Shown: positions 4 to 27,941, counted from the first letter of the stretch. The stretch: DNA of 32,000 nucleotides from Pseudomonas sp. FeN3W (GCA_030263805.2 CP136011.1:349934-381933), one strand, 5' to 3'. The notes: generated by a model from the sequence alone, not told the origin. Made by a program: numbers and translations.

Positions 4-543
4 TCAGCAGGGAGAGGGAGTATGAGGATACTGGCCTTGGTCGCTAGATGAAATGAGACTGATGTTATTCTCAAGAACGTAATTACGTATCGTGGTGGCA
101 TCTTGAACTGGGTGATGAGTTAGCTTATTTGACTCCACCCAGTTTTCGTACTCCTCTTTTTCTTTCGTAGATAATACGTCTAAAAGAGTCTTTATTGAGA
201 AAGCCATCTTCACACCACTGTCATCGAACAGCTTCTTTATCCAGTACGAATCCCACCTGCTGTCTGAATAAATTGACTTCCCCTTGAAAACAGCATTCAT
301 TTCTCTCGCCACCAAGAAGGCGTCACGACCCTGCTGGGTCAACTGCTCCCTGTCGATCCCATGAATGGCTTCAGCAAAGCTGTCCCACTCATCCCAGTCT
401 TCGAGTGGGCAGATCATCCAGTACCACACCTGCCCGTCCGGGCCGCTGACGCCTATCGAAATCGGATAGCTGTGCTCACTAAGGCCGCTTGACTCACAGT
501 CTAGGATCAGCAGGTCATTGGAATCTTTCATTAGGCGTCTCAC
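4..543 (-). CDS. DEDDh-type (DnaQ/RNase T-like) 3'-5' exonuclease
   Basis: 179-aa ORF. Exo I DxE in LILDCESSG, an Exo II-like Asp in YSDSRWD, and Exo III H-x4-D in THHPVQDA. Start is GTG at 543 or ATG at 531; stop TGA at 4-6. Confidence 0.7.
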   Translation of the reverse strand: MRRLMKDSNDLLILDCESSGLSEHSYPISIGVSGPDGQVWYWMICPLEDWDEWDSFAEAIHGIDREQLTQQGRDAFLVAREMNAVFKGKSIYSDSRWDSYWIKKLFDDSGVKMAFSIKTLLDVLSTKEKEEYENWVESNKLTHHPVQDATTIRNYVLENNISLISSSDQGQYPHTPSPC

Positions 544-655
544 AACATTGAATAGGCTTACCCGAGAGGATAACGCAAAAAATTCAAAATTTCTAATCCA
601 TCCAGGTTTATTGACGCGTATACTGATGACAGGTCACCCAGTTTGGAGTGAGTTT

Positions 656-3310
656 ATGCGTGCGTACTCAACATTTACATCCGATGATCTGCTGTCAGGC
701 CACAATGACTTACACCCGAAATTGCTCCAGGACGCTAGACGCCTGGCACTCCACTCCCAGCTTGCTTGCTGGACGTCGACAGATCTTCTCAGGGAGTTGA
801 TATCCATCCGAGGTAAATTAACTTTAAACAGGTCGCTTGATAAAAAATGGCCGTTTGAAATCGTCAATGGTCGCGTCATACGCGATCTTACTGAAACGCA
901 AGCATACAACGCGCTTATAACCGGTGACCTTGAGTCCTCACTCCAGGCCATTCCTGCTGCTCTACAAAACGGCATTAGGCTTTCCAGGCTGATAGAAGCG
1001 CAGAGGGCCAAAGGAATAGGAGTCTATTTCAAGACTACACTAAAACTAAGGACACAGTGGTATCACGATTACCAATACCATGATCAACTCGCGGCGGAAG
1101 CTATGCTCGCCTGGATAGGAATGTCCAGTTGTAGCATTAAACAGTTATTGACTAGCGAAAGCCTTTCGCGTGATGAAATCATTCTTTTGGAGATAGTCAA
1201 AGGCCACCGAAAGACAATAGCAAGCAAGGTTTTTATAAAGGGCGTTGAATCAACAATAAGGCATATTCCTCGCTCTTTCATCTTGAGTCCCGACTTCGCT
1301 TTTACTCTTATTCCGGCAAGCTCGGACGGATTCACCACAACCACTGAGTATTTCTCAGCGATAGACGCTGAGTTTCAGAAGATAATTGATACAAGCATGG
1401 AAATCACTGAGCCACTCCTATCCATGATCCCTGATCATACGAGGCTCTTGCTCATGAGCGACATCAATACATATGAAGCCGTTATGCATTTCAAAGACAA
1501 TGTAACGCTAGCGCTCAACAGGCACACATATGCTGAGTCATGCCAATTAGTCCTGGATGTGGCTGGTGAAAAAGTAGAGATCATTTGCCCTTTATCATTG
1601 CCCAGCAATATAGTTTTAACCAGTGAGATGTATGAGTCCCTCTGCGTTAGAGCGCGCAATAGCATGGAAGAATCTTTCAATAACTTAAAGAAAATAGCCG
1701 GATCATTTGATCTTGGGCTAATAGAAAAGCCATTTTTACTAAAGCTTTTGCGAATGAAGAATCGTCAAATGAAAAAGTCATTCTTTCCAATCATGGAAAA
1801 AATAAAAGGATCAATCGCCATGGCAGACATACTAGAGTCTGATCCAAGATTTACGCATTATCATGATCTTTATCCCGCAAGAAATATCAATCGCCAATGG
1901 ATTGCCTACCTTGGCCCAACAAACAGTGGGAAAACACATAGCAGCATGAATGAAATGGCTGCTGCTGAAAACGGAATATACCTATCGCCCTTAAGGCTCA
2001 TGGCCTTAGAAAATCAAGAAAGACTTGAGCAATCTGGCATACCTTGCTCGCTCGTAACCGGTGAGGAGCAGATTATAAGGGAAGGGGCATCACATTACTG
2101 CTGCACTGTTGAAGAATTTGCACGCTTCAAAAATCGAAAATGGGACGTGGTTGTGGTAGATGAAGTGCAAATGCTCTGCGACCAACAGCGAGGGTGGGCG
2201 TGGACGGACGCATTAGTGAGTGCGCAAACACCAAGGTTGATAGTGACAGGCCCTGGCGCTATAGAGCCAACAATAAGAAGCCTTGCGCAGATCTGTGGTG
2301 ATGAGGTAGACGTCCTACTGAAAGATCGCCTGACAGATCTACAGATAGCTTCAGGGCCTGAAAAAATAGAGACCATAAGGGCCGGATCAATTATTGTCGC
2401 TTTCAGCAGAAAGACCGTTCTGGATATCAAGCGCATGCTCGACGCGAAAGGCAGATCCACAGCGGTGGTCTATGGCGCGCTGTCTCCTATGGTCAGAAAA
2501 GAGCAGGCCAGATTATTTCGTGAGGGGGAAGCAGAAATTATGATTGCCACAGATGCCATCGGCATGGGGCTCAATTTGCCTGCCCATTCTGTTTATTTTT
2601 ACGCTGACTCCAAGTTTGATGGGCAGTCTGTTCGCCCACTAACAAGCCAGGAGGTTAAGCAGATTGGGGGAAGGGCGGGTCGCTATGGGCTTTCAGAATC
2701 AGGAACAATAGGCGCCTTTACTTCTGAAGCTTTATCCAGCATCAGGAGCAGATTCAAACAAATTGACAGGCCCGTAGATCTTCAAAAATTCCAAGTCCGT
2801 CCTACACTTGCTCATCTATCCACACTGTCTGAAGTACTTGGCGAAAAAAGCCTTCTTAAGGTCTGGTTAAGCTTCATCAAGACAGTCAATTATGGAGAAG
2901 CATTTCGCGCAGTCCTGCCAACTGAACTCATGGAGTGGATAAGGCAGATTGACAATTGCGAAATAGATCTTGAACTACGGTGGATTTTTGCATGTGCTCC
3001 GGTGCATGGAGGGCTGGACGGTTACGCTAGTCAGTGGTTACAGGAGTGGTTGCGGTGCCTTCATAAGTCAAAGCCAATCACCTTGCCCATGTATTCACCT
3101 CAGCCTGGCCTCAAAGGCTATGAAGACGCTTTGCACATGATTGATGCATACCTTCATCTCGCCAGAGTTCTACCCGATCAATTCTTTCAAGCAGCCGATG
3201 CAGAAGCCCTGAAAACTACAATGAATGACAAAATGATCGACGCACTATCGACGCGTCGACGAAACAGCAAAACAAAGCCAAGCGCTGAGTCGACTACAAT
3301 GCAATGCTAG
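656..3310 (+). CDS. Suv3-like superfamily-2 RNA/DNA helicase with a ~410-aa N-terminal region of unknown function
   Basis: The C-terminal half carries the Suv3 motif series: GPTNSGKTH (Walker A, nt ~1913), SPLRLMALE, LVTGEE, VVVDEVQM, RGWAWTDAL, IVAFSRK, VVYGALSP, ATDAIGMGLNLP, QIGGRAGR. The ORF is open from 518 (TTG), which overlaps the exonuclease gene. I prefer ATG 656, which has GGAG 7 nt upstream. ATG 626 is an alternative without an SD. Confidence 0.85.
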   Translation: MRAYSTFTSDDLLSGHNDLHPKLLQDARRLALHSQLACWTSTDLLRELISIRGKLTLNRSLDKKWPFEIVNGRVIRDLTETQAYNALITGDLESSLQAIPAALQNGIRLSRLIEAQRAKGIGVYFKTTLKLRTQWYHDYQYHDQLAAEAMLAWIGMSSCSIKQLLTSESLSRDEIILLEIVKGHRKTIASKVFIKGVESTIRHIPRSFILSPDFAFTLIPASSDGFTTTTEYFSAIDAEFQKIIDTSMEITEPLLSMIPDHTRLLLMSDINTYEAVMHFKDNVTLALNRHTYAESCQLVLDVAGEKVEIICPLSLPSNIVLTSEMYESLCVRARNSMEESFNNLKKIAGSFDLGLIEKPFLLKLLRMKNRQMKKSFFPIMEKIKGSIAMADILESDPRFTHYHDLYPARNINRQWIAYLGPTNSGKTHSSMNEMAAAENGIYLSPLRLMALENQERLEQSGIPCSLVTGEEQIIREGASHYCCTVEEFARFKNRKWDVVVVDEVQMLCDQQRGWAWTDALVSAQTPRLIVTGPGAIEPTIRSLAQICGDEVDVLLKDRLTDLQIASGPEKIETIRAGSIIVAFSRKTVLDIKRMLDAKGRSTAVVYGALSPMVRKEQARLFREGEAEIMIATDAIGMGLNLPAHSVYFYADSKFDGQSVRPLTSQEVKQIGGRAGRYGLSESGTIGAFTSEALSSIRSRFKQIDRPVDLQKFQVRPTLAHLSTLSEVLGEKSLLKVWLSFIKTVNYGEAFRAVLPTELMEWIRQIDNCEIDLELRWIFACAPVHGGLDGYASQWLQEWLRCLHKSKPITLPMYSPQPGLKGYEDALHMIDAYLHLARVLPDQFFQAADAEALKTTMNDKMIDALSTRRRNSKTKPSAESTTMQC

Positions 3311-3701
3311 CCTCACAGCCAGGTTTAGTGGGAGCACGAAGCTCGCGCTGAACCTGTGCTGTAAGAAGATCAACCATCATGCCGTAACGATCCTTGGCGG
3401 GCGTTACGTGAGCCAAGTATTGCGCGACCTGCTCAATGTCCTCGATGGGTGCAATCCTTGACCACGGGCCTACCGCTGGCGAAAGAATGCTTTCACTTTT
3501 CATGCGTGCATGAATGCCATCAGAAAGTGATATTTTTGCATGGGTTGCCGGATCAACAGTCACCTCCCCCTTTCCAGCCATAACTATCATTTTCGAGTGA
3601 TCCACGACTAATCCTTTTTCAAGGCTGTCCTTGATTGCCATGGCAAGTGCCGCTTCAGAATTGAAGCCCATAAGTTCAGTGTAATGTTTGATAACGTTCA
3701 T
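3294..3701 (-). CDS. hypothetical protein (135 aa)
   Basis: ORF starts 3 nt after the stop of the upstream 641-aa gene, so it looks like the last gene of that operon. Its 3' end overlaps the helicase 3' end by 17 nt (convergent). No recognisable motif. Confidence 0.6.
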   Translation of the reverse strand: MNVIKHYTELMGFNSEAALAMAIKDSLEKGLVVDHSKMIVMAGKGEVTVDPATHAKISLSDGIHARMKSESILSPAVGPWSRIAPIEDIEQVAQYLAHVTPAKDRYGMMVDLLTAQVQRELRAPTKPGCEASIAL

Positions 3702-3704: not shown

Positions 3705-5630
3705 TTAGAGCTCGAAGTCTGTCGATAATTTTTCGCGGCCCACTCGTCTTCTTATTTTATTGTCTAGCTTATCCAGCACGCCGCTCAAGTCGAAGTTGTT
3801 CACCACAAACTCGATTTGCTTTTCCGTGCTGGCGGCCTTAACAACTTCCATAATGTCAAATCTATCGAGGAGCCCTTTTATTTTTTCAATGTCTTCTGGA
3901 TCTTTGAGACGGCTAGATTTAGTAAGAAGGGCTTGCGGGGTTTCTCCGAAATTGGATGCAAGTCGTTTATACGCACCACCCAATCTTGCTCCAAGCCTTA
4001 ACTCTTTACTTATCCCATATGCTCCGCAAATGGTTTCATATTTCATGGGAAGACTTGGATCTTGCGCAGAAGCATTTTGTAAATTGAAATCTTCTTTTAG
4101 CCATGACACCTTCTCCAGATATTCCAGAGAACCCTTCAGGCTAATGTAGGGCGTAAAGCCCAAATATTCTTTCGCATATCTGAGCTCTTTTTTGAAATCC
4201 TCTAATGCCTGGTCAATATCATCACAAGACTGCATAATATGCACTGATTGTTGCTCATTTCGATACGTTCCGATAGTTTCGGATAGGTACTTCCTCATGA
4301 ACTCTACTTCATGCGATGTTGTCATTAACTTAAGCGTGCTGACGCTGCAAGCATCATGCGTGATCGACACTACACTATTCTGTAGTGATTGCCCCCAGTA
4401 AGCACCCCTTAGATAAAGCCTGGTTCCAATATCATTGCTAAACAATGAGTATTGCTGCGGGCGGCTTCCAGTCAGCCATTCAACAACTTCCGGCCTATGG
4501 TAACGCATTGCTGTTGATAGCTTTTCATCAACCTCGACACTCTGTTCACTTATGCTGCTATAAGGGATAAGCATTGTAATGTGGCTTTTGCTTTCAAGAA
4601 TCCTGCTTACAGACTCATGAGGCAGAAGCGTCATGGCCATCGCAGCTTCCACGTCCTCAACGCAATTATTGCCTGAAACTTTAAATCCTCTGTACGGAAC
4701 GACAGATGAGCTTGTTTCTTTTTGAGTGACGGGCATGGCTCTAACACCGCCAGCAGCCTCAACTGCGTTAGCTAGCGCCGGCTCAACAAGCACTGGGAGA
4801 TACTTTGGAAAGTTGCGTGCATTCCAACCCTGTGACGTATCTGGTTGATTCAGCCTTAGGGCCTCAACCCGAAACGCCTCTGCAAGCATTTTTCCTGTGG
4901 CAAACTCCGGCTTGCCTGATTTGATTTCCTTTATCAGAGGAATTCCCTGCTTCAGCTCCTTAAGCGTTTCCCCGACTAAATCAACTTGTGCCTGGAACCT
5001 CTTCAGAGTCCATGGATAATTTCTGGATGTGTGCTCATATTGGCTGAAATCGTCTGGCATCTCTAGCCCGAGTTTTGATAGCAAAACAATTGCATGCTCA
5101 TCCCAATTTGAAGGGTGGCCAACAAAAATAAACAATCCTTCCCGTTGAGAATATCGCGAGCTGAATAGCTTCACATCAGTTATTAATTCTTTGGCGAAAG
5201 CGTCTTTATCAATAAGACCAGAGTGGGCTGTGAGCGCCAAGTCATACATTGAACGGGACATATAGGTGCGGATTAACCTTCCCCTGGATTCTTCATCCAG
5301 TGGTTGATCAGCAAGTGAATTCAGAAATGCTGCGTAACCCGGTATATTTTTTACCAAGGAGTCTTGAAATAATCCGTTCAAATCTTCCGCACTATAAGCG
5401 CTTCTTAGCAACCCCTGCTTAAATTTATCGTTAAATAGATAGGGGGCTTTCTCAAGGGTTTGAACAACCTCCCGCAAAGAAATAAAAGGCAAAATTGCCG
5501 AAACAATATCCCCACGACTTTCTCGGATGGCTTCGCTATACAACTCGCCTATAATACTTTCAATGCTCATAAGATATTCCTGGAAAACTGCTTTGTATTC
5601 ATCACACCAGAAAATATCACGCGGCGTCAA
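3705..5630 (-). CDS. hypothetical protein (641 aa)
   Basis: Long uninterrupted ORF. Its start lies 1 nt after the stop of the upstream membrane-protein gene. No catalytic or binding motif recognised by eye. Confidence 0.8.
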   Translation of the reverse strand: MTPRDIFWCDEYKAVFQEYLMSIESIIGELYSEAIRESRGDIVSAILPFISLREVVQTLEKAPYLFNDKFKQGLLRSAYSAEDLNGLFQDSLVKNIPGYAAFLNSLADQPLDEESRGRLIRTYMSRSMYDLALTAHSGLIDKDAFAKELITDVKLFSSRYSQREGLFIFVGHPSNWDEHAIVLLSKLGLEMPDDFSQYEHTSRNYPWTLKRFQAQVDLVGETLKELKQGIPLIKEIKSGKPEFATGKMLAEAFRVEALRLNQPDTSQGWNARNFPKYLPVLVEPALANAVEAAGGVRAMPVTQKETSSSVVPYRGFKVSGNNCVEDVEAAMAMTLLPHESVSRILESKSHITMLIPYSSISEQSVEVDEKLSTAMRYHRPEVVEWLTGSRPQQYSLFSNDIGTRLYLRGAYWGQSLQNSVVSITHDACSVSTLKLMTTSHEVEFMRKYLSETIGTYRNEQQSVHIMQSCDDIDQALEDFKKELRYAKEYLGFTPYISLKGSLEYLEKVSWLKEDFNLQNASAQDPSLPMKYETICGAYGISKELRLGARLGGAYKRLASNFGETPQALLTKSSRLKDPEDIEKIKGLLDRFDIMEVVKAASTEKQIEFVVNNFDLSGVLDKLDNKIRRRVGREKLSTDFEL

Positions 5631-5631: not shown

Positions 5632-6225
5632 CTATGGCTGATAGGCGCCTACATTGATTAGGTTTTCCATAGCCATGTTCATTGAGAGCGTGCACCCATA
5701 GAAAAGCAATACCGAGACCGACACTGCGGCAAGGATGACCATCCACGGCTTTACGTGCTCAAACCTGGCCTCGGCCATTTGAAAAGCGAACAGGGTTGCC
5801 GTGCCTGTCGTGATCGTGATTATGGAGCGAATTAACGACAGAGGATCCATTCCCACCTGCCATGCCACCAGAGAAAAGAACCCAACCATGAGAGTATGGG
5901 CCATGAAATATCCATGGAAGACCAAAGAAGAATTTAAAAAACCTTCGGAAAACCTAAATAGAAAGTCGCCTTTGCGATTATCACATAGCATCTGAGGCGC
6001 TGTGAGTAACGCCATCATCATGGCGAACATCATCACGAAGAAGCCGATCACCACAGGATTCATGCTGCTTAAAGCCGCCCCAATTGAAGCGAACAGTAAT
6101 AGATAGAAGGCTGCCAGGCTGGCCTTCATCATCGAGGGCTCATTGACCCACAGCCTGAACAGTTGAGGTGCGTGTGTGATTGCCCCGAAGGTATAGTGGA
6201 TAGGGTGAACGATTTCTCTAAGCAT
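5632..6225 (-). CDS. integral membrane protein (about 5 hydrophobic helices)
   Basis: 197-aa ORF with hydrophobic stretches, e.g. ASLAAFYLLLFASIGAAL, PVVIGFFVMMFAMMMALL, MAHTLMVGFFSLVAW, WMVILAAVSVSVLLFYG. AGGA lies 7 nt upstream of ATG 6225. Confidence 0.7.
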   Translation of the reverse strand: MLREIVHPIHYTFGAITHAPQLFRLWVNEPSMMKASLAAFYLLLFASIGAALSSMNPVVIGFFVMMFAMMMALLTAPQMLCDNRKGDFLFRFSEGFLNSSLVFHGYFMAHTLMVGFFSLVAWQVGMDPLSLIRSIITITTGTATLFAFQMAEARFEHVKPWMVILAAVSVSVLLFYGCTLSMNMAMENLINVGAYQP

Positions 6226-6250
6226 GGTTTAATCCTGTCAATTCACATTG

Positions 6251-6279
6251 ATCATATTACGAAAACAAGGCGTTGGAAA
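6251..6279 (-). promoter_or_regulatory. candidate sigma70 promoter for the 5632-6225 operon (TTTCCA-17 nt-TATGAT)
   Basis: Minus strand: -35 TTTCCA (6279-6274), 17-nt spacer, -10 TATGAT (6256-6251). Predicted leader is ~25 nt. Confidence 0.35.
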
Positions 6280-6319
6280 GCCGCCAGTGGGTCGCTTCTC
6301 TGTGTTTCTATGCTGACTA

Positions 6320-6348
6320 TTGACAGAATGTCATTTTAAATGTATAGT
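6320..6348 (+). promoter_or_regulatory. sigma70 promoter of the TerD gene (TTGACA-17 nt-TATAGT)
   Basis: Consensus -35 TTGACA at 6320-6325, exactly 17 nt of spacer, and TATAGT at 6343-6348 preceded by TG. It lies ~50 nt upstream of ATG 6398. Confidence 0.7.
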
Positions 6349-6397
6349 TATCTGCAAATGGCTCAGCGCCATTTCAAACACCACAAGGAGATGCAAC

Positions 6398-6985
6398 ATG
6401 GGAACCCTGAACCTCGACAAAGGCCAGAAGCTCAACCTGGACAAGGTTGCGCCCGCGCTTTCAGTAGCCATGATCGGCCTGGGCTGGGAGGCACGCACCA
6501 CCGATGGTCAGCCGTTTGACCTTGATGTCAGCGCCTTCATGCTCAATGCCAGTGGCAAGGTGCGAAGCGATAAAGATTTCATCTACTACGGGAACCTGAA
6601 ATCCATTGAAGGCGCCGTTGAACACACTGGCGACAACCAGACGGGTGACGGCGATGGTGACGACGAATCCATCAAGGTGAACCTGGCGATGGTTCCTGAA
6701 GATGTGCAGCGCGTCGTTTTCACCGTAACGATCTACAAGGGATCTGAGCGCCGCCAAAGCTTCGGCCAGGTCAAGGGTGCGTATGCACGCCTGATCGACA
6801 ACGTGACTGGCGCCGAGATCGCGCGCTTCGACCTGACTGAAGACTACAGCACCGAGACCGCAATGCAGATGGTCGAACTGTACCGTCGCGATGGCACCTG
6901 GCGTTTCGGTGCTATTGGCCAAGGCTATACTGGTGGCCTGGCGGCAATGGCTACCGACTTCGGCCTGGATGTGGTTGGCGGCTAA
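6398..6985 (+). CDS. terD: TerD-family stress/tellurium-resistance protein with an intact Ca2+-binding motif
   Basis: MGTLNLDKGQKLNLDK N-terminus, FDLDVSAF, the canonical GDNQTGDGDGDDE motif, and VVFTVTIY. AAGGAG RBS at 6385-6390. The 6320 TTG extension was rejected because it sits inside the promoter. Confidence 0.9.
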   Translation: MGTLNLDKGQKLNLDKVAPALSVAMIGLGWEARTTDGQPFDLDVSAFMLNASGKVRSDKDFIYYGNLKSIEGAVEHTGDNQTGDGDGDDESIKVNLAMVPEDVQRVVFTVTIYKGSERRQSFGQVKGAYARLIDNVTGAEIARFDLTEDYSTETAMQMVELYRRDGTWRFGAIGQGYTGGLAAMATDFGLDVVGG

Positions 6986-7028
6986 TTGCCTGTTCAAGCG
7001 CGGGCCTCCGAAGGGATCCGTGACTGAG

Positions 7029-7052
7029 AAAGGGCTCTTCGGAGCCCTTTTT
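7029..7052 (+). terminator. rho-independent terminator after terD
   Basis: AAAGGGCTC (7029-7037), TTCG loop, GAGCCCTTT (7042-7050), followed by TT. Confidence 0.85.
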
Positions 7053-7077
7053 ACTTTATTGAAAAAGGGAAATCATC

Positions 7078-7728
7078 ATGGCAGTGGACATCACGAAGCG
7101 CGAAACGCCCGCTCAGGGAAAAAGCGTCATCAACCTCGATAAGCGCGGCTCGACCCTATCTCTCGATAAGAAAACGGGGTTCGACAAAATTGTTGTGAAT
7201 CTCAACTGGAACCAGGGCAAGCCGCAGAAAGTGGGCTTTCTAAAGTCGCTATTTGGCGGAGAATCCAAAACCGGCGTTGATCTTGATCTAGGATGCCTAT
7301 TTGAGCTCAAAAATGGGCAAAAAGGCTGCGTGCAGGCGCTTGGTAACGCCTTCGGTGACTACCGTAATGCCCCTTACATCCACCTGCTTGGCGACGACAG
7401 GACAGGAGCCAACCAGAATGGCGAATTCATGTGGATCAACGGCGCCTTTTTCAGCCAAATAAAGCGGATCGTTATCTATGCCTTCATTTATGAGGGCGTC
7501 GCCAGCTGGGGTGAGACGGATGGTGTTATTACCGTTCAAACACCTGGGCATGACACGATTCAGGTTGCGATGGATTCAAATGCCGATCTCCCGCTTTGTG
7601 CAATTGCCATGATTGAAAATGATCATGACAATCTTAAAATCACCAAGCTGGTAGAGTTTTTCAGTGATCAGGAAAAGCTCGATATCGCCTATGGATGGAA
7701 CATGAATTGGTCGGTAGGATCCAAGTGA
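7078..7728 (+). CDS. TerD-domain paralog with a degenerate metal-binding motif
   Basis: INLDKRGSTLSLDK and VDLDLGCLF mirror the TerD N-terminal strands. GDDRTGANQNGE occupies the position of the GDNxTGxGxGDDE motif but has lost several acidic residues. RIVIYAFIY matches the TerD core strand. Confidence 0.8.
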   Translation: MAVDITKRETPAQGKSVINLDKRGSTLSLDKKTGFDKIVVNLNWNQGKPQKVGFLKSLFGGESKTGVDLDLGCLFELKNGQKGCVQALGNAFGDYRNAPYIHLLGDDRTGANQNGEFMWINGAFFSQIKRIVIYAFIYEGVASWGETDGVITVQTPGHDTIQVAMDSNADLPLCAIAMIENDHDNLKITKLVEFFSDQEKLDIAYGWNMNWSVGSK

Positions 7729-7740
7729 CTGAATGAAGGA

Positions 7741-7778
7741 GAAGGCCCTGGGGCAACCTGGGCCTTCGCCATCGTTTT
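7741..7778 (+). terminator. rho-independent terminator after the TerD paralog
   Basis: GAAGGCCC (7741-7748) pairs with GGGCCTTC (7760-7767). A TTTT run follows at 7775-7778, slightly distal. Confidence 0.6.
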
Positions 7779-7846
7779 GTAGCAGCCTCATGAGATTGTG
7801 TTGCGCTTCAGTTTGAAGGGTATTGCAAGGCTACGTTCATTTTTGT

Positions 7847-7866
7847 AATATCTATATTGACAGGAT
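7847..7866 (+). promoter_or_regulatory. composite motif site: AATATCTATATTG + TATATTGACA + ATTGACAGGAT, upstream of hsp20
   Basis: AATATCTATATTGACAGGAT ends 45 nt before ATG 7912. It shares a 13-mer with 15441-15453, a 10-mer with 18164-18173 and 31754-31763(rc), and a 12-mer with 28624-28635. Confidence 0.45.
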
Positions 7867-7911
7867 CATTCGATCTGTCTAACAACACGTCGCTCAACGA
7901 GGACACAATCC

Positions 7912-8361
7912 ATGAGACAACATTATCTGTACATCAATTTCAGCGATCTATTCAACAGCCTTGCCGAAATTGCCAACCCCAAAAAAGCTTTTGGCTTTCC
8001 CCCAACTGACATTATCAAGCTGACAGAGACTCAGTATCAGATCCAGGTCGCTTTAGCTGGCTATCGCAACGAGAATGTTACGGTTACCTTTGAGCCATGC
8101 GGCGCCCGTAGCCATGAAGGCCAGCTTGTTGGTGATAGGAACCTTCTTCGGATCGAAGGAAACTTTCCCAAGCCGGAAGGTGATTCAGGAATGGTGACCT
8201 ATATTCAGCGCAACATTGCCCGACGTAACTTCAAACATGCGATTGCGCTAGATCGTCATATTGAAGTTGAAAGCGCAAAACTTGAACATGGATTGCTAAC
8301 CATCGATCTTAAGCTTGTTGTGCCGGACGAGCACAAGCCGCAAACAATAAAGATCAATTGA
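7912..8361 (+). CDS. small heat-shock protein, Hsp20/alpha-crystallin family (IbpA/IbpB-like)
   Basis: YQIQVALAGYRNENVTVTFE ... LLRIEG ... YIQRNIARRNFKHAIAL ... AKLEHGLLTIDLKLVVPDEHKPQTIKIN matches the IbpA layout. GAGGA RBS upstream. Confidence 0.9.
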   Translation: MRQHYLYINFSDLFNSLAEIANPKKAFGFPPTDIIKLTETQYQIQVALAGYRNENVTVTFEPCGARSHEGQLVGDRNLLRIEGNFPKPEGDSGMVTYIQRNIARRNFKHAIALDRHIEVESAKLEHGLLTIDLKLVVPDEHKPQTIKIN

Positions 8362-8365
8362 GTCA

Positions 8366-8393
8366 AAAGAGCCGGTCGAAGACCGGCTTTTTG
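8366..8393 (+). terminator. rho-independent terminator after hsp20
   Basis: AGCCGGTC (8370-8377), GAA loop, GACCGGCT (8381-8388), followed by TTTT. Confidence 0.85.
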
Positions 8394-8429
8394 TATAACA
8401 ATGTTCATCACAGCATCAGGTGTTATTAA

Positions 8430-9281
8430 TTGCAGAACTACATAAATGGCTTGCAATACATCCCAGCAAGTCTAACGAAGAAAGACATTCAAGAGATTGC
8501 GTGCCCTTCTTACGAACGATTGATCATTGATCCCGAACACCCCTCTTATCGTGATGCGTGTGAGCATTTTTCACAAACTAAGTATAAATATCCATATTTA
8601 CCACTTTATCTTGGGAATCATGACATACCAAATGTAGAGAAAATCGACTTGAACGTCTTGCGCCTTTTGATAAGAATGAATAATTCAGAGGCGTCTATTT
8701 ATTTACCAATGCAACTTCTTCCTTTGAAAGAACTCATTCTTTGCACAATTAATTACCATCGCCAAGCGTATTCAGCAAACAAGGATTGCTTTGTTTATTT
8801 AACTGTTAGGGCATGCACGTTTGAACAACTCTATTACAAGAACTCAATGGGTTGGCACATTGATGGTTTCCAGGGATCCAGAATTGAACGTCACATTATT
8901 GAGCAAGACGCTTTCTGGTGTAACTTATCAGCAACACAATTCCTATTGCAGCCAATGTTTTGTGAAGGCTTGAACCCAACAAAGCACGATATCAACATGT
9001 TCTTTGATAATCAGGCAGATAGTCGATTCATGGTTCAATCCCTCGAAAAATCGATATACCTTGCAACACCATACAATATCCATAGAGTGAATCCCAATCC
9101 GTTTGATGGCAAAAGAGTTTTTGTAAGAATTAACTTTTCCCCTGTATTGATAGAAGATCACACAAACACCTTCAATCCTGAATTTCCAGAGTACAAATTC
9201 AAACCCAGGGTTGATGTCAGGGATTTTTTATGGCAATACAATGCCTGCGAAGTTAGCGACTCCGGGTTTATCTTTGCCTGA
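8430..9281 (+). CDS. hypothetical protein; candidate double-stranded beta-helix 2OG-Fe(II) oxygenase
   Basis: 283-aa ORF in a markedly AT-rich block. It has an HxD in GWHIDGF, a distal His in PYNIHRV ~70 residues later, and RVFVRINFS ~14 residues after that, which is the AlkB-like HxD...H...R spacing. There is no in-frame ATG near the 5' end; TTG at 8430 or 8451 are the only early starts. Confidence 0.5.
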   Translation: MQNYINGLQYIPASLTKKDIQEIACPSYERLIIDPEHPSYRDACEHFSQTKYKYPYLPLYLGNHDIPNVEKIDLNVLRLLIRMNNSEASIYLPMQLLPLKELILCTINYHRQAYSANKDCFVYLTVRACTFEQLYYKNSMGWHIDGFQGSRIERHIIEQDAFWCNLSATQFLLQPMFCEGLNPTKHDINMFFDNQADSRFMVQSLEKSIYLATPYNIHRVNPNPFDGKRVFVRINFSPVLIEDHTNTFNPEFPEYKFKPRVDVRDFLWQYNACEVSDSGFIFA

Positions 9282-9363
9282 CCTACATGATGAAATGGAT
9301 TAACATGCAGTTTTTGAGTTAAACTGAAAAAATAAACGACCAAAACTGAGTTTTTCAATCGTC

Positions 9364-10251
9364 ATGACCAAGACAACAATCCTTTACCATGCCAACTGTT
9401 TTGATGGCACGTTCTCAGCAGCAGTAGCCAAAGAGCATTTTGGGGATTCGGCAACCTACGTGCCCGTAAGCTATGATAAGCCTCTTACTGACTTTTCTAA
9501 TCAGCGTCTGTTTTTCCTTGATGTCGTCTACAAGGAAAAAGATATGCAATTACTTTTGGGCAAGGGCAATGAGATTCATGTCATTGATCACCATCGAGAC
9601 AATGTAAAACCCATCGCCCATCTTCCTTTGGCCTCTTTGAGGTACGATGCAAATGAATCCGGCGCCTCCTTGACTTTCAAGCACCTGAATCCAGGAAAAG
9701 AGCTGCCGCTTGCCATTGCACATGCCAGAGATTATGACCTTTGGCGCTTTGAATTGACGGGAACCCGCCACTTTGTGGCGAATCAGGCGACTCCCCCCCT
9801 CGAAGTAGACAGCTACCGCGAACTGCTCAGGCTTGAGGGCCGAGATTATGAGCAATTCGTTGAAGCTGGCAAGGGAATACTGGCGTATAAGAACAAACTA
9901 GTCGAAGAAATTTCCGCAAGTGCAATAAATATCAAACTCAAAGGCATCGAGGGATGGATGGTCAATGGGCCAGCAGAACTCAGAAGCGAAATTGGCAATT
10001 ATCTATCAATAAAGCATAAAGCAGCTTTCGCCCTGATTTGGAGTGAGCGCTCTGACGGGAAGATCAAAGTATCATTGAGGTCAAGCGAAGGAGATGCGCC
10101 TCTCCAGATTGCGAAAGCGCTTGGAGGTGGCGGCCATGACCGGGCAGCCAGTGCCGTCATGGAAAAATCAAAGTTCAATAGACTGGCTAGTTCAGCAAAA
10201 AAATCTGTGCAAGCGCGATCCCTGTCAGACTCCTGCTGCGATCATCATTAA
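9364..10251 (+). CDS. DHH/DHHA1-family phosphoesterase (NrnA/RecJ-like fold)
   Basis: Motif I HANCFDG, motif II FFLDV, motif III VIDHHRDN, and the DHHA1 motif GGGGHDRAAS near the C-terminus. Confidence 0.8.
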   Translation: MTKTTILYHANCFDGTFSAAVAKEHFGDSATYVPVSYDKPLTDFSNQRLFFLDVVYKEKDMQLLLGKGNEIHVIDHHRDNVKPIAHLPLASLRYDANESGASLTFKHLNPGKELPLAIAHARDYDLWRFELTGTRHFVANQATPPLEVDSYRELLRLEGRDYEQFVEAGKGILAYKNKLVEEISASAINIKLKGIEGWMVNGPAELRSEIGNYLSIKHKAAFALIWSERSDGKIKVSLRSSEGDAPLQIAKALGGGGHDRAASAVMEKSKFNRLASSAKKSVQARSLSDSCCDHH

Positions 10252-10276: not shown

Positions 10277-10316
10277 TAATTCATATCACACTTCGAAAAC
10301 AACCGCTTTAAACAAC

Positions 10317-10333
10317 CTATCCAAACCTACTCA
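10317..10333. repeat. inverted repeat, tnpB-side end of the IS (CTATCCAAACCTACTCA)
   Basis: 16/17 match to the reverse complement of 12736-12752, including a perfect 13-nt core CCAAACCTACTCA. Confidence 0.6.
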
Positions 10334-10370
10334 CGCAGTTTGAACAGTGTTTAAAACCTCAAAGTCGCCC

Positions 10371-12038
10371 TTAAAAGGGCACATCTTCGAGGCCGTCACT
10401 CCCGCAGTGAGGGTGACTCGCGTGACGGGGTCTCACCGTCAACGTCCGGGTAGGGCTCAGTGAATGGGCCAGGCCTTTGCGTGTTGCCACGCATTGCTTG
10501 GCCGAAATCACAGGCGCAGGGGATTGTTTATGATCCCCAGACCGCACGTGCGCTGCATGCGCCGCTGACAGGTTTTTCCTCACGCCCGCCCAGAATGACC
10601 ATACATGCTTCGCCCGATTCCTTGCAGGTAGGGCAAAGGTGACATGGCCACCCCCGCGTGTGGGTGCAACACCCGCTCGCGTGGACAGACGTTCGGAAAA
10701 ACCCAATCCACGTCGGGCGATGGCCGTGGCCGCGCCCTGGTGGACAGAAATGCCTCGGACACTGGCGTGATTCACCGCGCCAATCACCGAGGTGTAGGCC
10801 GGGTTGACGTCAATGACTTCTACTCCGGCCCTGAAACAGGCGCTGCGTAACGCAGCCCCCACCTGTGCGTAAAAGAACCCAGAGAGCAGGCGTGCTGCCT
10901 TCGGATTCATCATGGTTAAATCGGATTTCTTCTGACGAAAATCCAGCTTTTCCAACACCAGTGGCTTGCCAGCGGCGGCGCACTGCGCCGCCACAGCCTT
11001 GGCCAGATCACCTATTTTGGCCTTGGCCTGATCGGTGGATAGACCATAGGTGGCGCATTGCAGGCGTTGGGTATTGGTCAAATTACCAAAACGATCCAGC
11101 TCGGCCAACGCCAGGTGATCGGCATTCAGATCGAGGCCAAAGGCACCAAGCCCGCGTTTCGTGACTATCGGGACATCGTCGTGCTGGGTCGAGACAAAGA
11201 CGCGCCAGCCCTGATCGTCTCGGATAAAGCGATAGCTCAGCGCTCGCCCTGCTACCAGGGAATTCAAAATGGATGGGTGGCCATAGGCAAACTGGACATC
11301 GGTCAGTGTGATGTATTTGCCCAGCGCTTCTGGCAAGCGCACCCTGAGCCTCAGGCGCTGATCAGCCTGCACAGTCGCCACGCAGCTCTGGCAGCCTGCG
11401 GTTTCATCCTTGGAGCCGACCAGGAAGAACTGATCACTGCGGCTGGTTTGCCAATCCTTTTTCCAGTCAGCGTGCGTCAATTGTGCATCATTGAATTGGC
11501 TGCGAAAACGCTTGCGAGAGCCAAAGCATAAACGGACTTTGCCGCAGGCTTTCTCAGTAATCATGCGTTCCAGGCGCGCCTGCTGGCGCGCCAGGCTGCG
11601 TTTCTTTTGATGCAGTGAGAACGCTAACTTATCGATCTTGACTGGATCGACAGTTGTCATTTTCTTTTTGGGTTTGCGCAGCACCTTAAGTTCTTTGTCC
11701 AGGCGCACAAGGGTTGAGGTCAGTCGCTTAATCTTGCCCTGAGCCTCATGAATGAGGTCACCCTGACGGGACTTAATCGACTCAATCTTGCCTTCCAAGA
11801 GCATGCGGATGGCATTGAAATGCCGGGCGGTGATGCCGTAGTCAGCAATAAACCTGGATTTTAGTTGGGCAATAGAAACCACTTCATCCTTGCGGTGGCA
11901 AGCGGCAAGCGAAGTGTTCTTCACCATAGCGGCAAACAACTTGCGCTCCAGTTGCCCGTATTGCTTCGCATAGGCATTTAAGGCAGCGTCTTGCGCAGCC
12001 TCTAGTACTAAGCGAGTTTGATAGGTGAAGACGGGCAA
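10371..12038 (-). CDS. tnpB: TnpB-like (OrfB) protein, atypically long and lacking the zinc-ribbon
   Basis: RuvC-I-like FGLDLNADHLA, RuvC-II-like LVLEKLDF, and NPAYTSVIG in place of the usual ..YTSQxCxxCG. No CxxC pairs follow, and SVHQGAATAIARRG sits where DxNAAxNI is expected. A long charged, coiled-coil-like insertion lies near residues 80-170. Confidence 0.85.
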   Translation of the reverse strand: MPVFTYQTRLVLEAAQDAALNAYAKQYGQLERKLFAAMVKNTSLAACHRKDEVVSIAQLKSRFIADYGITARHFNAIRMLLEGKIESIKSRQGDLIHEAQGKIKRLTSTLVRLDKELKVLRKPKKKMTTVDPVKIDKLAFSLHQKKRSLARQQARLERMITEKACGKVRLCFGSRKRFRSQFNDAQLTHADWKKDWQTSRSDQFFLVGSKDETAGCQSCVATVQADQRLRLRVRLPEALGKYITLTDVQFAYGHPSILNSLVAGRALSYRFIRDDQGWRVFVSTQHDDVPIVTKRGLGAFGLDLNADHLALAELDRFGNLTNTQRLQCATYGLSTDQAKAKIGDLAKAVAAQCAAAGKPLVLEKLDFRQKKSDLTMMNPKAARLLSGFFYAQVGAALRSACFRAGVEVIDVNPAYTSVIGAVNHASVRGISVHQGAATAIARRGLGFSERLSTRAGVAPTRGGGHVTFALPARNRAKHVWSFWAGVRKNLSAAHAAHVRSGDHKQSPAPVISAKQCVATRKGLAHSLSPTRTLTVRPRHASHPHCGSDGLEDVPF

Positions 12039-12090
12039 GTGGGGTATTCCAAACTGAATGGCTTGATACTAATCAGATCTTCTATACGGG

Positions 12091-12699
12091 TCAAGCCGCT
12101 TGCTGCAAGTGTTTTAGGTTTTTCCGTGAACGCGAGCCATATAACCTGGCAGAAAACACCGTCATCAACTCGATAACGTCAGCAACAAGGCTGGTTTCCA
12201 GATTGGCCTCTACTGGTTGATCAACAATCACCACCTGTGTTTTATTCAACTTGCACAATTCAAAAATGATATCCGCACCAAACCTGAGCAAGCGGTCTTT
12301 GTGAAGTAGTACCAACGTTGATACCTGGCCTAGCGCAATCATCCGCAGTAGCTTGAGAAAGGCTTTCTTTTGATAGTTCAAGCCACTGCCCAAGTCGCTG
12401 AGTATTTCTACATCCCTGTGTCCAGCGCTGTGACAATACTGAATCAGCCTGTCTCGTTGTCGAACCAGGTCTTCCTTTTGATCATGGCTAGATACGCGAG
12501 CATAGCCCACCACCTTACGTTGTTCTGGACTGTGCCTGCCTATCAGCGCATGGAGATCATTCACAGCATAACGACGATGCTGACCACAGGTGCGAAAAGA
12601 GGGTCGCAAGCGGCCATCTTTTTCCCAACGGCGAAGTGTTGAAATGGATACGCCGAGTAATTCGCTGGCTTCGACTATTGATAAATGCTGCATGATCAT
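12091..12699 (-). CDS. tnpA: IS607-type serine recombinase transposase (MerR-like HTH + resolvase catalytic domain)
   Basis: LSIVEASELLGVSISTLRRWEKDGRL (HTH) followed by VGYARVSSHDQKEDLVRQ (catalytic Ser motif) and LVLLHKDRLLRFG. Confidence 0.9.
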   Translation of the reverse strand: MIMQHLSIVEASELLGVSISTLRRWEKDGRLRPSFRTCGQHRRYAVNDLHALIGRHSPEQRKVVGYARVSSHDQKEDLVRQRDRLIQYCHSAGHRDVEILSDLGSGLNYQKKAFLKLLRMIALGQVSTLVLLHKDRLLRFGADIIFELCKLNKTQVVIVDQPVEANLETSLVADVIELMTVFSARLYGSRSRKNLKHLQQAA

Positions 12700-12735
12700 G
12701 ACTCACTTGTTATTGTTTGGTCAGATTGTAACAAA

Positions 12736-12752
12736 TGAGTAGGTTTGGTTAG
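12736..12752. repeat. inverted repeat, tnpA-side end of the IS (TGAGTAGGTTTGGTTAG)
   Basis: Reverse complement matches 10317-10333 at 16/17 positions. Confidence 0.6.
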
Positions 12753-12771
12753 TTATTTATCTTGCAGTAGA

Positions 12772-12792
12772 AGCCCCGCCATTAGCGGGGCT
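12772..12792 (-). terminator. hairpin downstream of ligA (no U-tract)
   Basis: AGCCCCGC / GCGGGGCT 8-bp stem with a 5-nt loop, 5 nt after the ligA stop. No T-run follows on the minus strand, and the IS end lies 20 nt away. Confidence 0.4.
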
Positions 12793-14908: not shown

Positions 14909-15499
14909 ATGACGTCGTCATGGATCCTTACGCCGACATCGAGTAAGCCTTCAGGCTTACCGATGATGATGGGTGGAAAGTCGCCATTGATTTACGCTCC
15001 CCTGCCCTGCGCCCATTGCGGCGATGAACTCGACTTCGTTGGCGTTTTTCCCGCCTGGTCTGGACGCCTATTTGGGCTCTGGCAGTGTTTCGGTTGCTTG
15101 CCTGCAATGCTAGGGAACCATGAAATCAAATGGTTAAAAGGCGAAGACCTATCCATATTGCGTGCCTGCTCAGGCATGAAATGGCTTGAGAGTACTCGCG
15201 CCCCCTCCCTGCCTGGCCCTCATCATTTTTCACAAAATCGCTCACTTGCCCTCACTGCCAGACACGATCAACTGCCAAGACAACGTCAATTAGCTTCGTT
15301 TGATATACAAACGCTTGGGTGGTCTCACTCTTTCACAAATGCCATGGATCCGCTTTGGCGCAAGCAACCAAGATCAACGCGCCTCCTAATACAGATAAAA
15401 TCTGATAACGCGATTGACTTTCATCATTCAGGATTGTTCAAATATCTATATTGCCCAATTAAAAAACAGACGGTTTTAGACTATGAGCCAATTCAGTAG
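14909..15499 (+). CDS. doubtful ORF; possible small CxxC...CxxC zinc-ribbon protein
   Basis: This is the only long ORF in the 650-bp gap. No SD was seen at ATG 14909 or 14963. The product is Trp/Ser/Pro-rich. It contains CAHCGDEL...(21 aa)...CFGC. Confidence 0.3.
   Translation: MTSSWILTPTSSKPSGLPMMMGGKSPLIYAPLPCAHCGDELDFVGVFPAWSGRLFGLWQCFGCLPAMLGNHEIKWLKGEDLSILRACSGMKWLESTRAPSLPGPHHFSQNRSLALTARHDQLPRQRQLASFDIQTLGWSHSFTNAMDPLWRKQPRSTRLLIQIKSDNAIDFHHSGLFKYLYCPIKKQTVLDYEPIQ
15441..15456 (+). promoter_or_regulatory. motif site AATATCTATATTGCCC upstream of the NIF phosphatase gene
   Basis: The 13-mer AATATCTATATTG is identical to 7847-7859. The site ends 26 nt before ATG 15483. Confidence 0.4.
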
Positions 15500-16067
15500 A
15501 CCTTTGGTGGTCTTCGATCTTGATGAAACTCTCATCTACTGCAATGAAAAGCCGTATCGTGATGCCCAAATCACAACACCGCATGGGCACCTATCAATTC
15601 GCGATGGGCTGGAAGATATGCTGGAAAAAATATCTGATGTGTATGACATCATGGTATGGAGCACTTCGGGAAAAGAATATATTGATGATATGCTTGCCAT
15701 TATTTGGCCAATGCATATCCCTCTGGTAGATGTTTTTACCTCGGCGGAATGTGGCATTAAGAGCTTTGAAAATGTTGGAATCCCGCATTACAAGGATATG
15801 AAAAAAATAATTAAAAAACACCCTTGCTATACCCTGGATCGGATCGCTGGGGTAGATGATACTCCAGACAAGTACAAAAGAAACTTTGGCAATTTGGTAT
15901 CAGTGAGTCGCTTCACTGGCGCGCAGGATAACGAGTTAATAAGGTTGGGTGACTATCTAATAACGCTAAGTTTAGCAAGCAGCATAAGAAAAGTTGAAAA
16001 GAGATACTGGAGGCGCGTGGATCAAGGATCGGCCTTAAGTGATCCGGAAATTAACAAGTGGCCCTGA
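15483..16067 (+). CDS. FCP1/NIF-type (CTD-small-phosphatase-like) HAD phosphatase
   Basis: DxDxT motif in VVFDLDETLIYC, WSTSGKEY (motif II region), YKDMKKI, and VDDTPDKY (motif IV-like Asp pair). Confidence 0.8.
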   Translation: MSQFSRPLVVFDLDETLIYCNEKPYRDAQITTPHGHLSIRDGLEDMLEKISDVYDIMVWSTSGKEYIDDMLAIIWPMHIPLVDVFTSAECGIKSFENVGIPHYKDMKKIIKKHPCYTLDRIAGVDDTPDKYKRNFGNLVSVSRFTGAQDNELIRLGDYLITLSLASSIRKVEKRYWRRVDQGSALSDPEINKWP

Positions 16068-16081
16068 GAAACCAGGGCCAC
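16058..16081. terminator. hairpin between convergent genes (bidirectional terminator candidate)
   Basis: GTGGCCCTG (16058-16066), AGAAAC loop, CAGGGCCAC (16073-16081). It overlaps the TGA of the + gene and lies 8 nt beyond the stop of the - gene. Confidence 0.5.
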
Positions 16082-16088
16082 TTAGTCA

Positions 16089-16709
16089 TCACGATGGTCT
16101 GAATCCTTCGAGTATCTCTTCAAAATCGATTTGTTTTGGCTCATCATTCAGAAGTGCGTCAAGGACGTCTTGCGCGGCAAGCCAATTGTACTGAGGCCAC
16201 ATTTGCAGCCCTTTCTTTATGTATGCGGAGAAAGAGTTTGTGCGTTCTCGATAAATCCTTCTCGCCGCTTTGCCAACCCCTTCATTGTTAATGTGATGAA
16301 TGGCTTCCATGATGTCAGCAAGTTTGGTAATGATGCCTAGGTGCGTATCAGCCGTCTGATCCGCAAGATCTGCATACGGCTTACAGATTTTTCGCTCAAG
16401 CATTTCAATGGGAGACATTTGATCAGGAAATAGTGACTCAAGATATCGCTTGAGAGGTGTGCTCATGTCACCTGTTGAAACCTCGGCCATATCATGCCAG
16501 AGACACTTTCGTACCAGAAGCAACTGATCTTTCTCACTCATGTCTGGGTCGATCACTTTGGCCAAGTACTCTGCGTACATGGTTACTAGAAAGGAGTGTT
16601 CAGCAACGCTCGGATGACGCAAGCAGCGAACCGAATGCCAGCGTGTCACATTTGCTGCATGTGCAACGTTGGCTATGGAATAGTTTTCATTTTCAAGCTT
16701 CGAACTCAT
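16089..16709 (-). CDS. HD-domain phosphohydrolase, YfbR-like 5'-(deoxy)nucleotidase type
   Basis: RWHSVRCLRHPSVAEHSFLV and LWHDMAEVSTGDMSTPLK match the YfbR-type H...HD...D pattern. AAGGAG RBS 7 nt upstream of ATG 16709. Confidence 0.8.
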   Translation of the reverse strand: MSSKLENENYSIANVAHAANVTRWHSVRCLRHPSVAEHSFLVTMYAEYLAKVIDPDMSEKDQLLLVRKCLWHDMAEVSTGDMSTPLKRYLESLFPDQMSPIEMLERKICKPYADLADQTADTHLGIITKLADIMEAIHHINNEGVGKAARRIYRERTNSFSAYIKKGLQMWPQYNWLAAQDVLDALLNDEPKQIDFEEILEGFRPS

Positions 16710-18085: not shown

Positions 18086-18163
18086 TTGTCGGCAATCACT
18101 TTTTAGACGACTACGAAGAAGCTATTGGCTTTTTGGTCACATGCCGATAGTATCCGTAACGCA

Positions 18164-18173
18164 TATATTGACA
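18164..18173 (+). promoter_or_regulatory. TATATTGACA motif site upstream of ATG 18203
   Basis: Exact 10-mer, 29 nt before ATG 18203, which has AGGGAAG upstream. No acceptable -10 lies 16-18 nt downstream of the TTGACA part. Confidence 0.4.
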
Positions 18174-18202
18174 GCCACGAACAGGGGTTTACCAGGGAAG
18201 AA

Positions 18203-19624: not shown

Positions 19625-19663
19625 TTGCGGCTCTGGCCTGGCTGGGCGGTGGTTCGCTAAGCG

Positions 19664-19672: not shown

Positions 19673-19713
19673 CTAATAAATCAGAGTCTATCTACAGCCC
19701 AGGAGGTATCCAG

Positions 19714-27937: not shown

Positions 27938-27941
27938 CGAA

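Follow-up and report, generated by a model that had tools for sequence, protein, structure and literature searches.

In mitochondria, the Suv3 helicase pairs with 3′-5′ exoribonucleases (PMC5818665). Another paper (PMC9044407) describes human Suv3 unwinding duplexes of the DNA-DNA, the DNA-RNA, and the RNA-RNA kind, and a third (PMC7261184) places REXO2, a DEDDh enzyme, downstream of SUV3-PNPase. No functional study of bacterial Suv3-family helicases was found in the literature, though the proteins are annotated. Among plasmids, the ~1 Mb Pseudomonas megaplasmids of the pMPPla107 family are rich in genes for DNA synthesis, repair, and nucleotide metabolism (Smith et al. 2019, PMC6482414). Here, we describe a Suv3-family helicase gene and, divergent to it, a gene for a DnaQ-like (DEDDh) exonuclease at positions 4-3310 of a 32,000-nucleotide stretch from Pseudomonas sp. 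FeN3W (CP136011.1:349934-381933), the whole of which is called the window. A first-pass annotation, made from the sequence of the window, had proposed that the two proteins form a helicase-exonuclease pair analogous to the mitochondrial complex mtEXO. Our comparison points, with a probability of roughly 70%, to a helicase inserted into an older gene block, the exonuclease being a neighbor and not part of a conserved machine.

The plus-strand protein is a Suv3-family helicase of superfamily 2 (SF2), as the first-pass annotation had read it. The longest plus-strand open reading frame (ORF) is 518..3310, as given there. However, all helicase homologues start at the position of ATG 656, and the gene is accordingly taken as 656..3310 (+), encoding 884 aa, which is also the length given by gene callers in near-identical contigs. 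The Pfam domain DEXQc_Suv3 (PF22527; residues 416-563 when the protein is read as 894 aa; E = 3.6e-48; 163.5 bits, cut-off 27) marks RecA1 at 1871..2314, which holds Walker A GPTNSGKT (1913-1936), motif II DEVQ (2159-2170), and RGWAWT (2189-2206). RecA2 (Helicase_C, PF00271; E = 1.3e-12, above the gathering score) occupies 2378..2689 with motif VI QIGGRAGR at 2660-2683, and the SUV3_C domain (PF12513; E = 8.6e-8; 32.3 bits against a cut-off of 27) lies at 3110..3250. GPTNSGKT, DEVQ, QRGWAWTD, and QIGGRAGR are invariant across 19 helicase homologues. The motifs named in the first-pass annotation were found where it had placed them.

When the PDB is searched with the helicase sequence, yeast Suv3 of the mtEXO structure (6f4a_B) scores 8e-61 and human SUPV3L1 ~5e-58, both aligned from residue ~413. 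The AlphaFold2 (AF2) model has a mean predicted local distance difference test score (pLDDT) of 77.7, and its nearest fold in Foldseek is human Suv3 (3rc8; E = 3.8e-34, TMt 0.70). The Suv3 structures 3rc8, 3rc3, 6f4a_B, and 7w1r range from 4e-34 to 5e-22, whereas the next-best folds, Ski2, Hel308, and Mtr4, stay at ~1e-14, about 20 orders of magnitude behind 3rc8. Thus, RecA1, RecA2, and the C-terminal domain match human SUPV3L1 (3rc3/3rc8) and yeast Suv3 (6f4a) by both sequence and fold, and the DExQ box, RGWAWT, and QxxGRAGR motifs are shared. The identity to the mitochondrial proteins is only ~26%, however, and the window helicase has ~270 aa more in its N-terminal region, which does not match Suv3_N in sequence. 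Neither of the partners known for mitochondrial Suv3, PNPase and the RNase II-like Dss1, belongs to the DEDDh enzymes, and the window encodes neither.

The minus-strand protein is plausibly an active DnaQ-type 3′-5′ exonuclease, judging from its catalytic residues and its predicted fold. The longest minus-strand ORF is 4..543 (−), as noted earlier, whereas the exonuclease homologues (8 clusters) all start at the position of ATG 531. The gene at 4..531 (−) encodes 175 aa and belongs to the megaplasmid backbone described below. No Pfam family is matched at E ≤ 0.01, the gathering threshold of RNase_T (PF00929) is not reached, and a sequence search of the PDB gives no match. Weak profile matches are found to the DEDDh model of PADLOC (2.5e-6) and to phrog_192, "DNA polymerase exonuclease subunit" (5e-6). 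The AF2 model (pLDDT 81; predicted template modeling score 0.78) matches the DnaQ-domain, DinG-exonuclease, PolC-exonuclease, ExoI, Cas2-DEDDh, and Pol III epsilon structures in Foldseek with a probability of 1.00, the best match having E = 1e-6 and TM values reaching 0.67. The protein thus resembles DnaQ-like DEDDh exonucleases in its RNase H-like fold and in its Exo I DxE, Exo II D, and Exo III Hx4D motifs, but is only 14-20% identical to the solved structures. The motifs are D11/E13 for Exo I (nt 504-493), D94 for Exo II (within nt 261-247), and H139-x4-D144 for Exo III (nt 117-97), all on the minus strand like the HGI at nt 363-352. D11, E13, D94, H139, and D144 are present in the window protein and in 9/12 other homologues compared. 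The earlier assignment to the DEDDh exonucleases therefore agrees with the fold, the intact D-E-D-H-D set, and the weak DEDDh profile matches.

The exonuclease represents a small stand-alone protein family, with 8 clusters in a 5.8-billion-protein database and matches of 25-46% identity on 83 plasmid records. Not all members keep the catalytic residues, which are degenerate in L006 (8001-8501), L007 (4369-4854), and L085 (~6001-6330), where Exo I carries D→E or E→K, Exo II D→T, and Exo III D→S or no motif at all; these three loci have neither a helicase nor an RNase T-type neighbor. The YP, IG, W, HG, GRD, and REMNA positions stay invariant across the family. This retention of noncatalytic positions where catalytic residues are lost suggests that the family may have a role beyond catalysis.

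The window DNA has no megablast match in PLSDB or INPHARED; the encoded proteins do reveal its relatives. Homologues of the exonuclease on pMPPla107, pBASL58, and the P. silesiensis megaplasmid are 44-46% identical, and the NAD-dependent ligase of the window is 54% identical to the ligases of the same three plasmids. The gene at 3705..5630 (−), which encodes a protein of ~620-640 aa with no assigned function, is collinear in all related loci and serves as a lineage marker: tblastn against 72,556 plasmids matches this ~640-aa protein only on pMPPla107, pBASL58, and the P. silesiensis megaplasmid. A 135-aa backbone gene at 3294..3701 (−), convergent with the helicase, has homologues of 30% identity on pMPPla107 and pBASL58. 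The 3′ ends of the helicase and the 135-aa gene overlap by 17 nt (3294-3310); the two genes are ~55 nt apart in L001 and L003. In all, ten collinear homologues connect the window with pMPPla107 and pBASL58, in the shared order HD 5′-deoxynucleotidase, NIF/HAD phosphatase, ligA, DHHA1, Hsp20, TerD, the ~190-aa, ~620-aa, and ~130-aa genes, and the exonuclease. From the collinear genes, the shared marker protein, and the ligase and exonuclease homologues, we concluded that the window is part of a plasmid lineage related to the pMPPla107 family. The suggestion that the pair lies on accessory DNA thus proves correct.

Differences from pMPPla107 and pBASL58 should also be noted. The window proteins are only 25-54% identical to theirs, and the GC content is lower (47% in the window lineage, 53-55% in the pMPPla107 family). 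The window carries an IS607-family insertion, unlike the two plasmids, and has none of the tRNAs that are typical of the family. An RNase T-type exonuclease occupies the place of the Suv3 helicase in pMPPla107 and pBASL58, which have no Suv3 gene at all. The longest related contigs measure 100-326 kb. A phage origin was considered and rejected, as INPHARED gives no megablast match and IMG/VR contains no relatives of the helicase or the exonuclease.

The arrangement around the exonuclease was compared at 13 distinct loci. The near-identical pairs L001/L002 and L080/L084 were each counted once, and the near-identical contigs of the window (L086-L089) and the 2-kb fragment L083 were excluded from the count. 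A divergent Suv3 helicase stands beside the exonuclease in the window, L001/L002, L003, L008, and L079, the helicases being 56-58% identical to that of the window; it is also present in L086-L089. Contrarily, a same-strand RNase T-type exonuclease in tandem, with no helicase, is found in L009 (pMPPla107), L010 (pBASL58), L080/L084, and L081. The fragment L083 shows the same tandem arrangement as L009 and L010. Neither neighbor is present in L007, L006, L082, and L085, and in L007 a ~600-aa gene runs directly into the exonuclease. The RNase T-type protein (206-219 aa) is encoded directly upstream of the DnaQ-like homologue (L009:11384-12501, L010:11320-12492, L080, L081, and L083), and the two genes overlap by 4 nt in pMPPla107. 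A tandem of two different DEDDh-type proteins may form a heteromeric exonuclease, as far as the gene order can indicate.

In a neighbor-joining tree of the exonucleases, the helicase-bearing loci form one clade with the helicase-less L007 as its sister; the loci with the RNase T-type arrangement fall on two different branches. A tblastn search with the helicase against all plasmids matched 55 records, none of them a Pseudomonas megaplasmid; therefore, pMPPla107, pBASL58, and the P. silesiensis megaplasmid lack a Suv3 gene. Seen from the exonuclease, the pairing is limited to one sub-clade of five distinct loci in which the whole block is collinear, and the conserved synteny expected by the first-pass annotation is not observed beyond it.

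Nor is it observed from the side of the helicase. A scan of GTDB species representatives gave 68 helicase loci, 66 in Pseudomonadaceae (Stutzerimonas, several Pseudomonas groups, Azotobacter bryophylli, and Serpens) and 2 in Sphingomonadales. Within 6 kb of these 68 chromosomal loci, neither the exonuclease-family profile nor three RNase T-type probes found a matching ORF, so that a DEDDh neighbor was detected at 0/68 loci. This survey of the flanks used two subfamily probe sets, the A2 exonuclease profile and the three RNase T-type sequences, which do not detect each other. Suv3-like genes of Ideonella, Methylobacterium, and Salicola phage SCTP-2 likewise have no DEDDh-like neighbor in the loci inspected. 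In the 440-kb jumbo phage SCTP-2, the gene product is gp83 (MF360958.1 67468-69288; L090:4593-6413), annotated as hypothetical; it is a homologue of the Suv3 core with 40% identity over 333 aa and the sole close Suv3-like match among 50,697 phage records.

The chromosomal proteins of Stutzerimonas, ~786 aa long, are named "SUV3 family DEAD/DEAH box RNA helicase" by NCBI. They are 44% identical to the window helicase over residues 118-879 and 55-57% identical in the core, with all helicase motifs invariant, and they share its order of a ~300-aa N-terminal module, DEXQc_Suv3, Helicase_C, and SUV3_C. A tree built on the helicase core places the plasmid clade with this Pseudomonadaceae subfamily (55-57% identity) and far from the alpha- and betaproteobacterial Suv3-like proteins (34% identity). 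The Pseudomonadaceae Suv3 subfamily is thus already named, and the window helicase is a further member of it. The window helicase differs in that it has ~107 extra N-terminal residues, is borne on a plasmid, and lies behind a clade-specific promoter-like region; its chromosomal counterparts have no detectable exonuclease neighbor. The Stutzerimonas gene occupies an ordinary chromosomal site beside glp genes. The gene divergent to it was considered as a conserved chromosomal partner and rejected, as it encodes an unrelated lipoprotein.

Because the homologues start at ATG 531 and ATG 656, the overlap of 518-543 recorded in the first-pass annotation holds for the longest ORFs only; the genes supported by homologues leave a spacer of 124 nt (532..655). 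An alignment of the five helicase-bearing loci shows three conserved elements upstream of the helicase: the block AACGCAAAAAA at 572-582, the −10-like block TATACTGA, TATACT(GA), at 619-626, and the Shine-Dalgarno sequence GGAG at 645-648 before ATG 656. The intergenic blocks are kept in 5/5 helicase-bearing loci although the helicases are only ~57% identical, and each locus has the motifs a single time. In the helicase-less relatives, the exonuclease has an upstream region of its own, which lacks these motifs. They are also absent upstream of the chromosomal helicase homologues, with which no common promoter was found. AACGCAAAAAA and TATACTGA resemble an UP-element or operator together with a −10 box; the ground for promoter-like elements is conservation only, since a scan of 400-800 for consensus sigma-70 promoters and terminators called nothing. 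AACGCAAAAAA was also considered as a repeated regulon motif and rejected, as it occurs a single time in the window.

These observations can be arranged in the following order of events, which we favor. The DnaQ-like exonuclease would be an old member of a conserved, housekeeping-like block for nucleic-acid and nucleotide metabolism, the block of the lineage comprising TerD, Hsp20, the DHH/DHHA1 phosphoesterase, the NAD-dependent ligase, the HD 5′-deoxynucleotidase, and the exonucleases. Its ancestral state was probably a tandem with an RNase T-type exonuclease overlapping by 4 nt. In one sub-clade, on the simplest history, a single insertion would have placed a Suv3 helicase gene, oriented against its neighbors, in the slot flanked by the 135-aa gene and the exonuclease. 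The inserted gene, presumably captured by the megaplasmid lineage or exchanged with it, belongs to a subfamily otherwise seen as a stable gene on the chromosomes of Stutzerimonas, Pseudomonas, and Azotobacter. It presumably arrived with its own promoter-like region and gained the ~107 N-terminal residues, and the RNase T-type gene would have been lost from the slot. A single insertion into a backbone slot would therefore make the divergent pair a product of insertion and not a co-inherited two-gene system.

The competing explanation is a dedicated plasmid machine, an analog of mtEXO with a different nuclease fold, in which the helicase feeds 3′ strands to the exonuclease and both genes are under shared divergent control. 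Divergent adjacency in all five distinct helicase-bearing loci despite ~57% helicase identity, together with the conserved intergenic blocks, fits such a machine, as do the intact catalytic motifs of both proteins. The helicase moreover takes the place of a second 3′-5′ exonuclease, which in the relatives shows translational coupling to the DnaQ-like protein. The mitochondrial precedent of Suv3 working with 3′-5′ exoribonucleases (PMC5818665) and the position of the DEDDh enzyme REXO2 downstream of SUV3-PNPase (PMC7261184) point the same way. However, the two genes are inherited together in one clade only, and there the neighborhood is collinear throughout. The exonuclease family resides on complete megaplasmids that have no Suv3 gene, and the 68 chromosomal helicase loci show no DEDDh neighbor. 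The intergenic motifs belong to the helicase side only, while the exonuclease has its own upstream signals in the helicase-less relatives. In addition, the neighboring nuclease has a DnaQ/DEDDh fold and not the RNB (Dss1) or PNPase type that is found in mtEXO. On this evidence, most of the proposal of a dedicated mtEXO-like pair falls away, and we regard such a machine as improbable. A more specific form, in which the Suv3 helicase replaced the coupled RNase T-type exonuclease and its ~107-aa extension docks on the DEDDh exonuclease, giving a counterpart of mtEXO with a different nuclease fold and a conserved 124-nt divergent control region, is slightly more doubtful still.

Several points nevertheless weigh against the favored order of events. 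Since divergent adjacency and the intergenic region are conserved across helicases only 56-58% identical, co-regulation or cooperation within the helicase-bearing clade is possible. The helicase fills the exact slot of a second 3′-5′ exonuclease, which could reflect selection for a partner of the DnaQ-like protein and not random insertion. Very divergent DEDDh genes could have been missed in the flanks of the chromosomal loci, because neither of the two probe sets detects the other. Most of the related loci are metagenome contigs, and the absence of Suv3 from the entire replicon is proven for three complete plasmids only. Finally, the substrate (RNA or DNA), the activity, and the partners of the helicase are solely inferred.

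With its intact Walker A, DExQ, and motif VI, the inserted helicase would most likely be an ATP-driven 3′→5′ translocase, as the knowledge of its family suggests (PMC5818665, PMC9044407). By the same analogy, it would unwind RNA, RNA-DNA, or DNA duplexes with 3′ tails and expose 3′ ends. These ends might pass to the PNPase or RNase R of the host; the neighboring DEDDh enzyme is a possible recipient but would not be necessary. Such activity would help a very large plasmid with structured RNA, R-loops, or transcription-replication conflicts. The helicase might also act mainly on DNA, with a role at the replication fork, at R-loops, or in repair for a megaplasmid whose surrounding genes serve DNA metabolism. 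The block around it is indeed dominated by DNA and nucleotide genes (the NAD ligase, exonucleases, and nucleotide enzymes), the closest folds of the exonuclease are DNA exonucleases (DnaQ, PolC exonuclease, ExoI, and DinG), and the paper on the plasmid family stresses DNA synthesis and repair genes and conflict-resolving helicases (PMC6482414). Human Suv3 unwinds DNA-DNA and DNA-RNA besides RNA-RNA duplexes (PMC9044407). On the other side, RNA decay is what the Suv3 family is best known for, no DNA-repair neighborhood surrounds the chromosomal homologues, and the sequence does not discriminate between substrates. A role mainly on DNA is thus a tentative option that we consider somewhat unlikely.

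The N-terminal region of the helicase was said in the first-pass annotation to contain no recognizable motif over ~410 aa, and this holds: residues 1-410 have no match in Pfam, NCBIfam, or the PDB, either as a single sequence or as a 12-sequence profile. A phmmer search with these residues against 1.84 billion representative proteins found 3 clusters only. The region is nevertheless not without relatives, as ~300 aa of it are common to the chromosomal Suv3-family helicases, with ~320 aa consistently ahead of Walker A in these homologues. It divides into two parts. The first ~107 aa (656..976, +) are an extension specific to the plasmid clade; they have no counterpart in the chromosomal homologues, and phmmer found them only in the P0003 cluster, that is, the megaplasmid helicase clade. 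The extension may be a small alpha/beta unit, with low to moderate confidence (AF2 pLDDT ~47-78). The second part, a module of ~295 aa with no known domain (977..1861, +; residues ~108-402 in the 884-aa numbering), is ~22% identical to the chromosomal Suv3-family helicases of Stutzerimonas, Pseudomonas, Azotobacter, and Serpens. In the AF2 model, it consists of helices and two beta-hairpins followed by long helices that lead into RecA1. The N-terminal profile does not match the N termini of the Suv3-like proteins of Ideonella, Methylobacterium, and phage SCTP-2.

When the model is aligned to human Suv3 in Foldseek, 568-586 of the ~607 residues of the target are covered, a figure that gives lengths only and not residue pairing. 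This span exceeds the helicase core plus the C-terminal domain, so that the last ~100 aa of the N-terminal module (~300-412) probably correspond to the Suv3 N-terminal domain, judging from the alignment length of the model. The ~300-aa module would then probably extend this domain as a substrate- or partner-binding platform.

The first-pass annotation had taken the N-terminal region for a possible targeting or sensor domain and had pointed to the logic of anti-phage systems. An anti-phage or anti-plasmid module would use the helicase as sensor or motor, the N-terminal module as sensor, and the nuclease as effector. Helicase plus nuclease is a common combination in defense, the best profile match of the exonuclease is the CRISPR-associated DEDDh model of PADLOC (2.5e-6), and the window also encodes a defense-like patatin-like phospholipase and an ATPase pair. 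The matches of the helicase in PADLOC, however, cover only the generic Helicase_C stretch (~590-720, ~100 aa) of the HamB and DpdF models, at E ≥ 1e-8, and the neighboring genes have no matches in PADLOC-DB v2. The exonuclease is a backbone gene conserved among plasmids that share only 25-45% identity in the proteins around it, and not a gene of a variable island. The helicase subfamily is a stable single-copy chromosomal gene with an ordinary metabolic neighborhood in many Pseudomonadaceae species, and no literature link between Suv3 and phage defense was found. Without a system-specific PADLOC match, and with a backbone exonuclease and housekeeping-like chromosomal helicases, a defense module is very unlikely.

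Other features of the window are as follows. An IS607-family element of 2.47 kb (10305-12773) is inserted between the DHHA1 gene and ligA. It encodes a TnpA at 12091-12699 (NCBIfam transpos_IS607, 1.5e-57) and a TnpB-like ORF at 10371-12038, which is unusually long (555 aa) and divergent, with a weak guided_TnpB match in its C-terminal part (2.3e-7) and no Pfam match. The element is missing from L086 and L087, whose flanking DNA is ~98.5% identical, and its GC content (0.54-0.56) is higher than that of the surroundings. The stretches 6320-10251, 15483-16709, and 27215-28027 are dense in stress and nucleotide-metabolism genes, namely two TerD-like genes, Hsp20, a DHH/DHHA1 phosphoesterase, a NIF-type phosphatase, a YfbR-like HD 5′-deoxynucleotidase, and a thymidylate kinase; this gene theme matches that of pMPPla107 and pBASL58.

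At 18125-19624 (+), a 499-aa protein is encoded whose similarity to MksF of the Mks condensin (NCBIfam, 9e-17) is confined to the N-terminal 210 aa; the gene after it, at 19714-20922 (+), encodes a 402-aa protein that has no match. This gene pair (18125-20922) may be a plasmid-borne condensin-like or Wadjet-like module, as the sequence similarity suggests. Two genes overlapping by 4 nt at 22417-25223 (−) encode a 557-aa GHKL-type ATPase protein (HATPase_c_3, 6e-5) with a sacsin/MutL-like N terminus and a 378-aa protein with no match, an arrangement that looks defense-like. The gene at 29332-31737 (−) encodes a patatin-like phospholipase of 801 aa (Pfam, 2.3e-23) that weakly resembles the T4SS (type IV secretion system) effector VpdC and the CBASS phospholipase.

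A plasmid-borne Suv3 helicase beside a 3′-5′ exonuclease would be a handle on the function of Suv3 in bacteria. Here this handle offers little hold, since the two genes probably came to lie side by side through a single insertion into an older backbone. The comparison does define a Pseudomonadaceae-specific Suv3 subfamily with an uncharacterized ~300-aa N-terminal module, and a divergent family of stand-alone DnaQ-like proteins typical of very large plasmids. It also indicates that megaplasmids of the pMPPla107 type swap nucleic-acid enzymes at one variable slot, which holds an RNase T-type exonuclease, a Suv3 helicase, or nothing.

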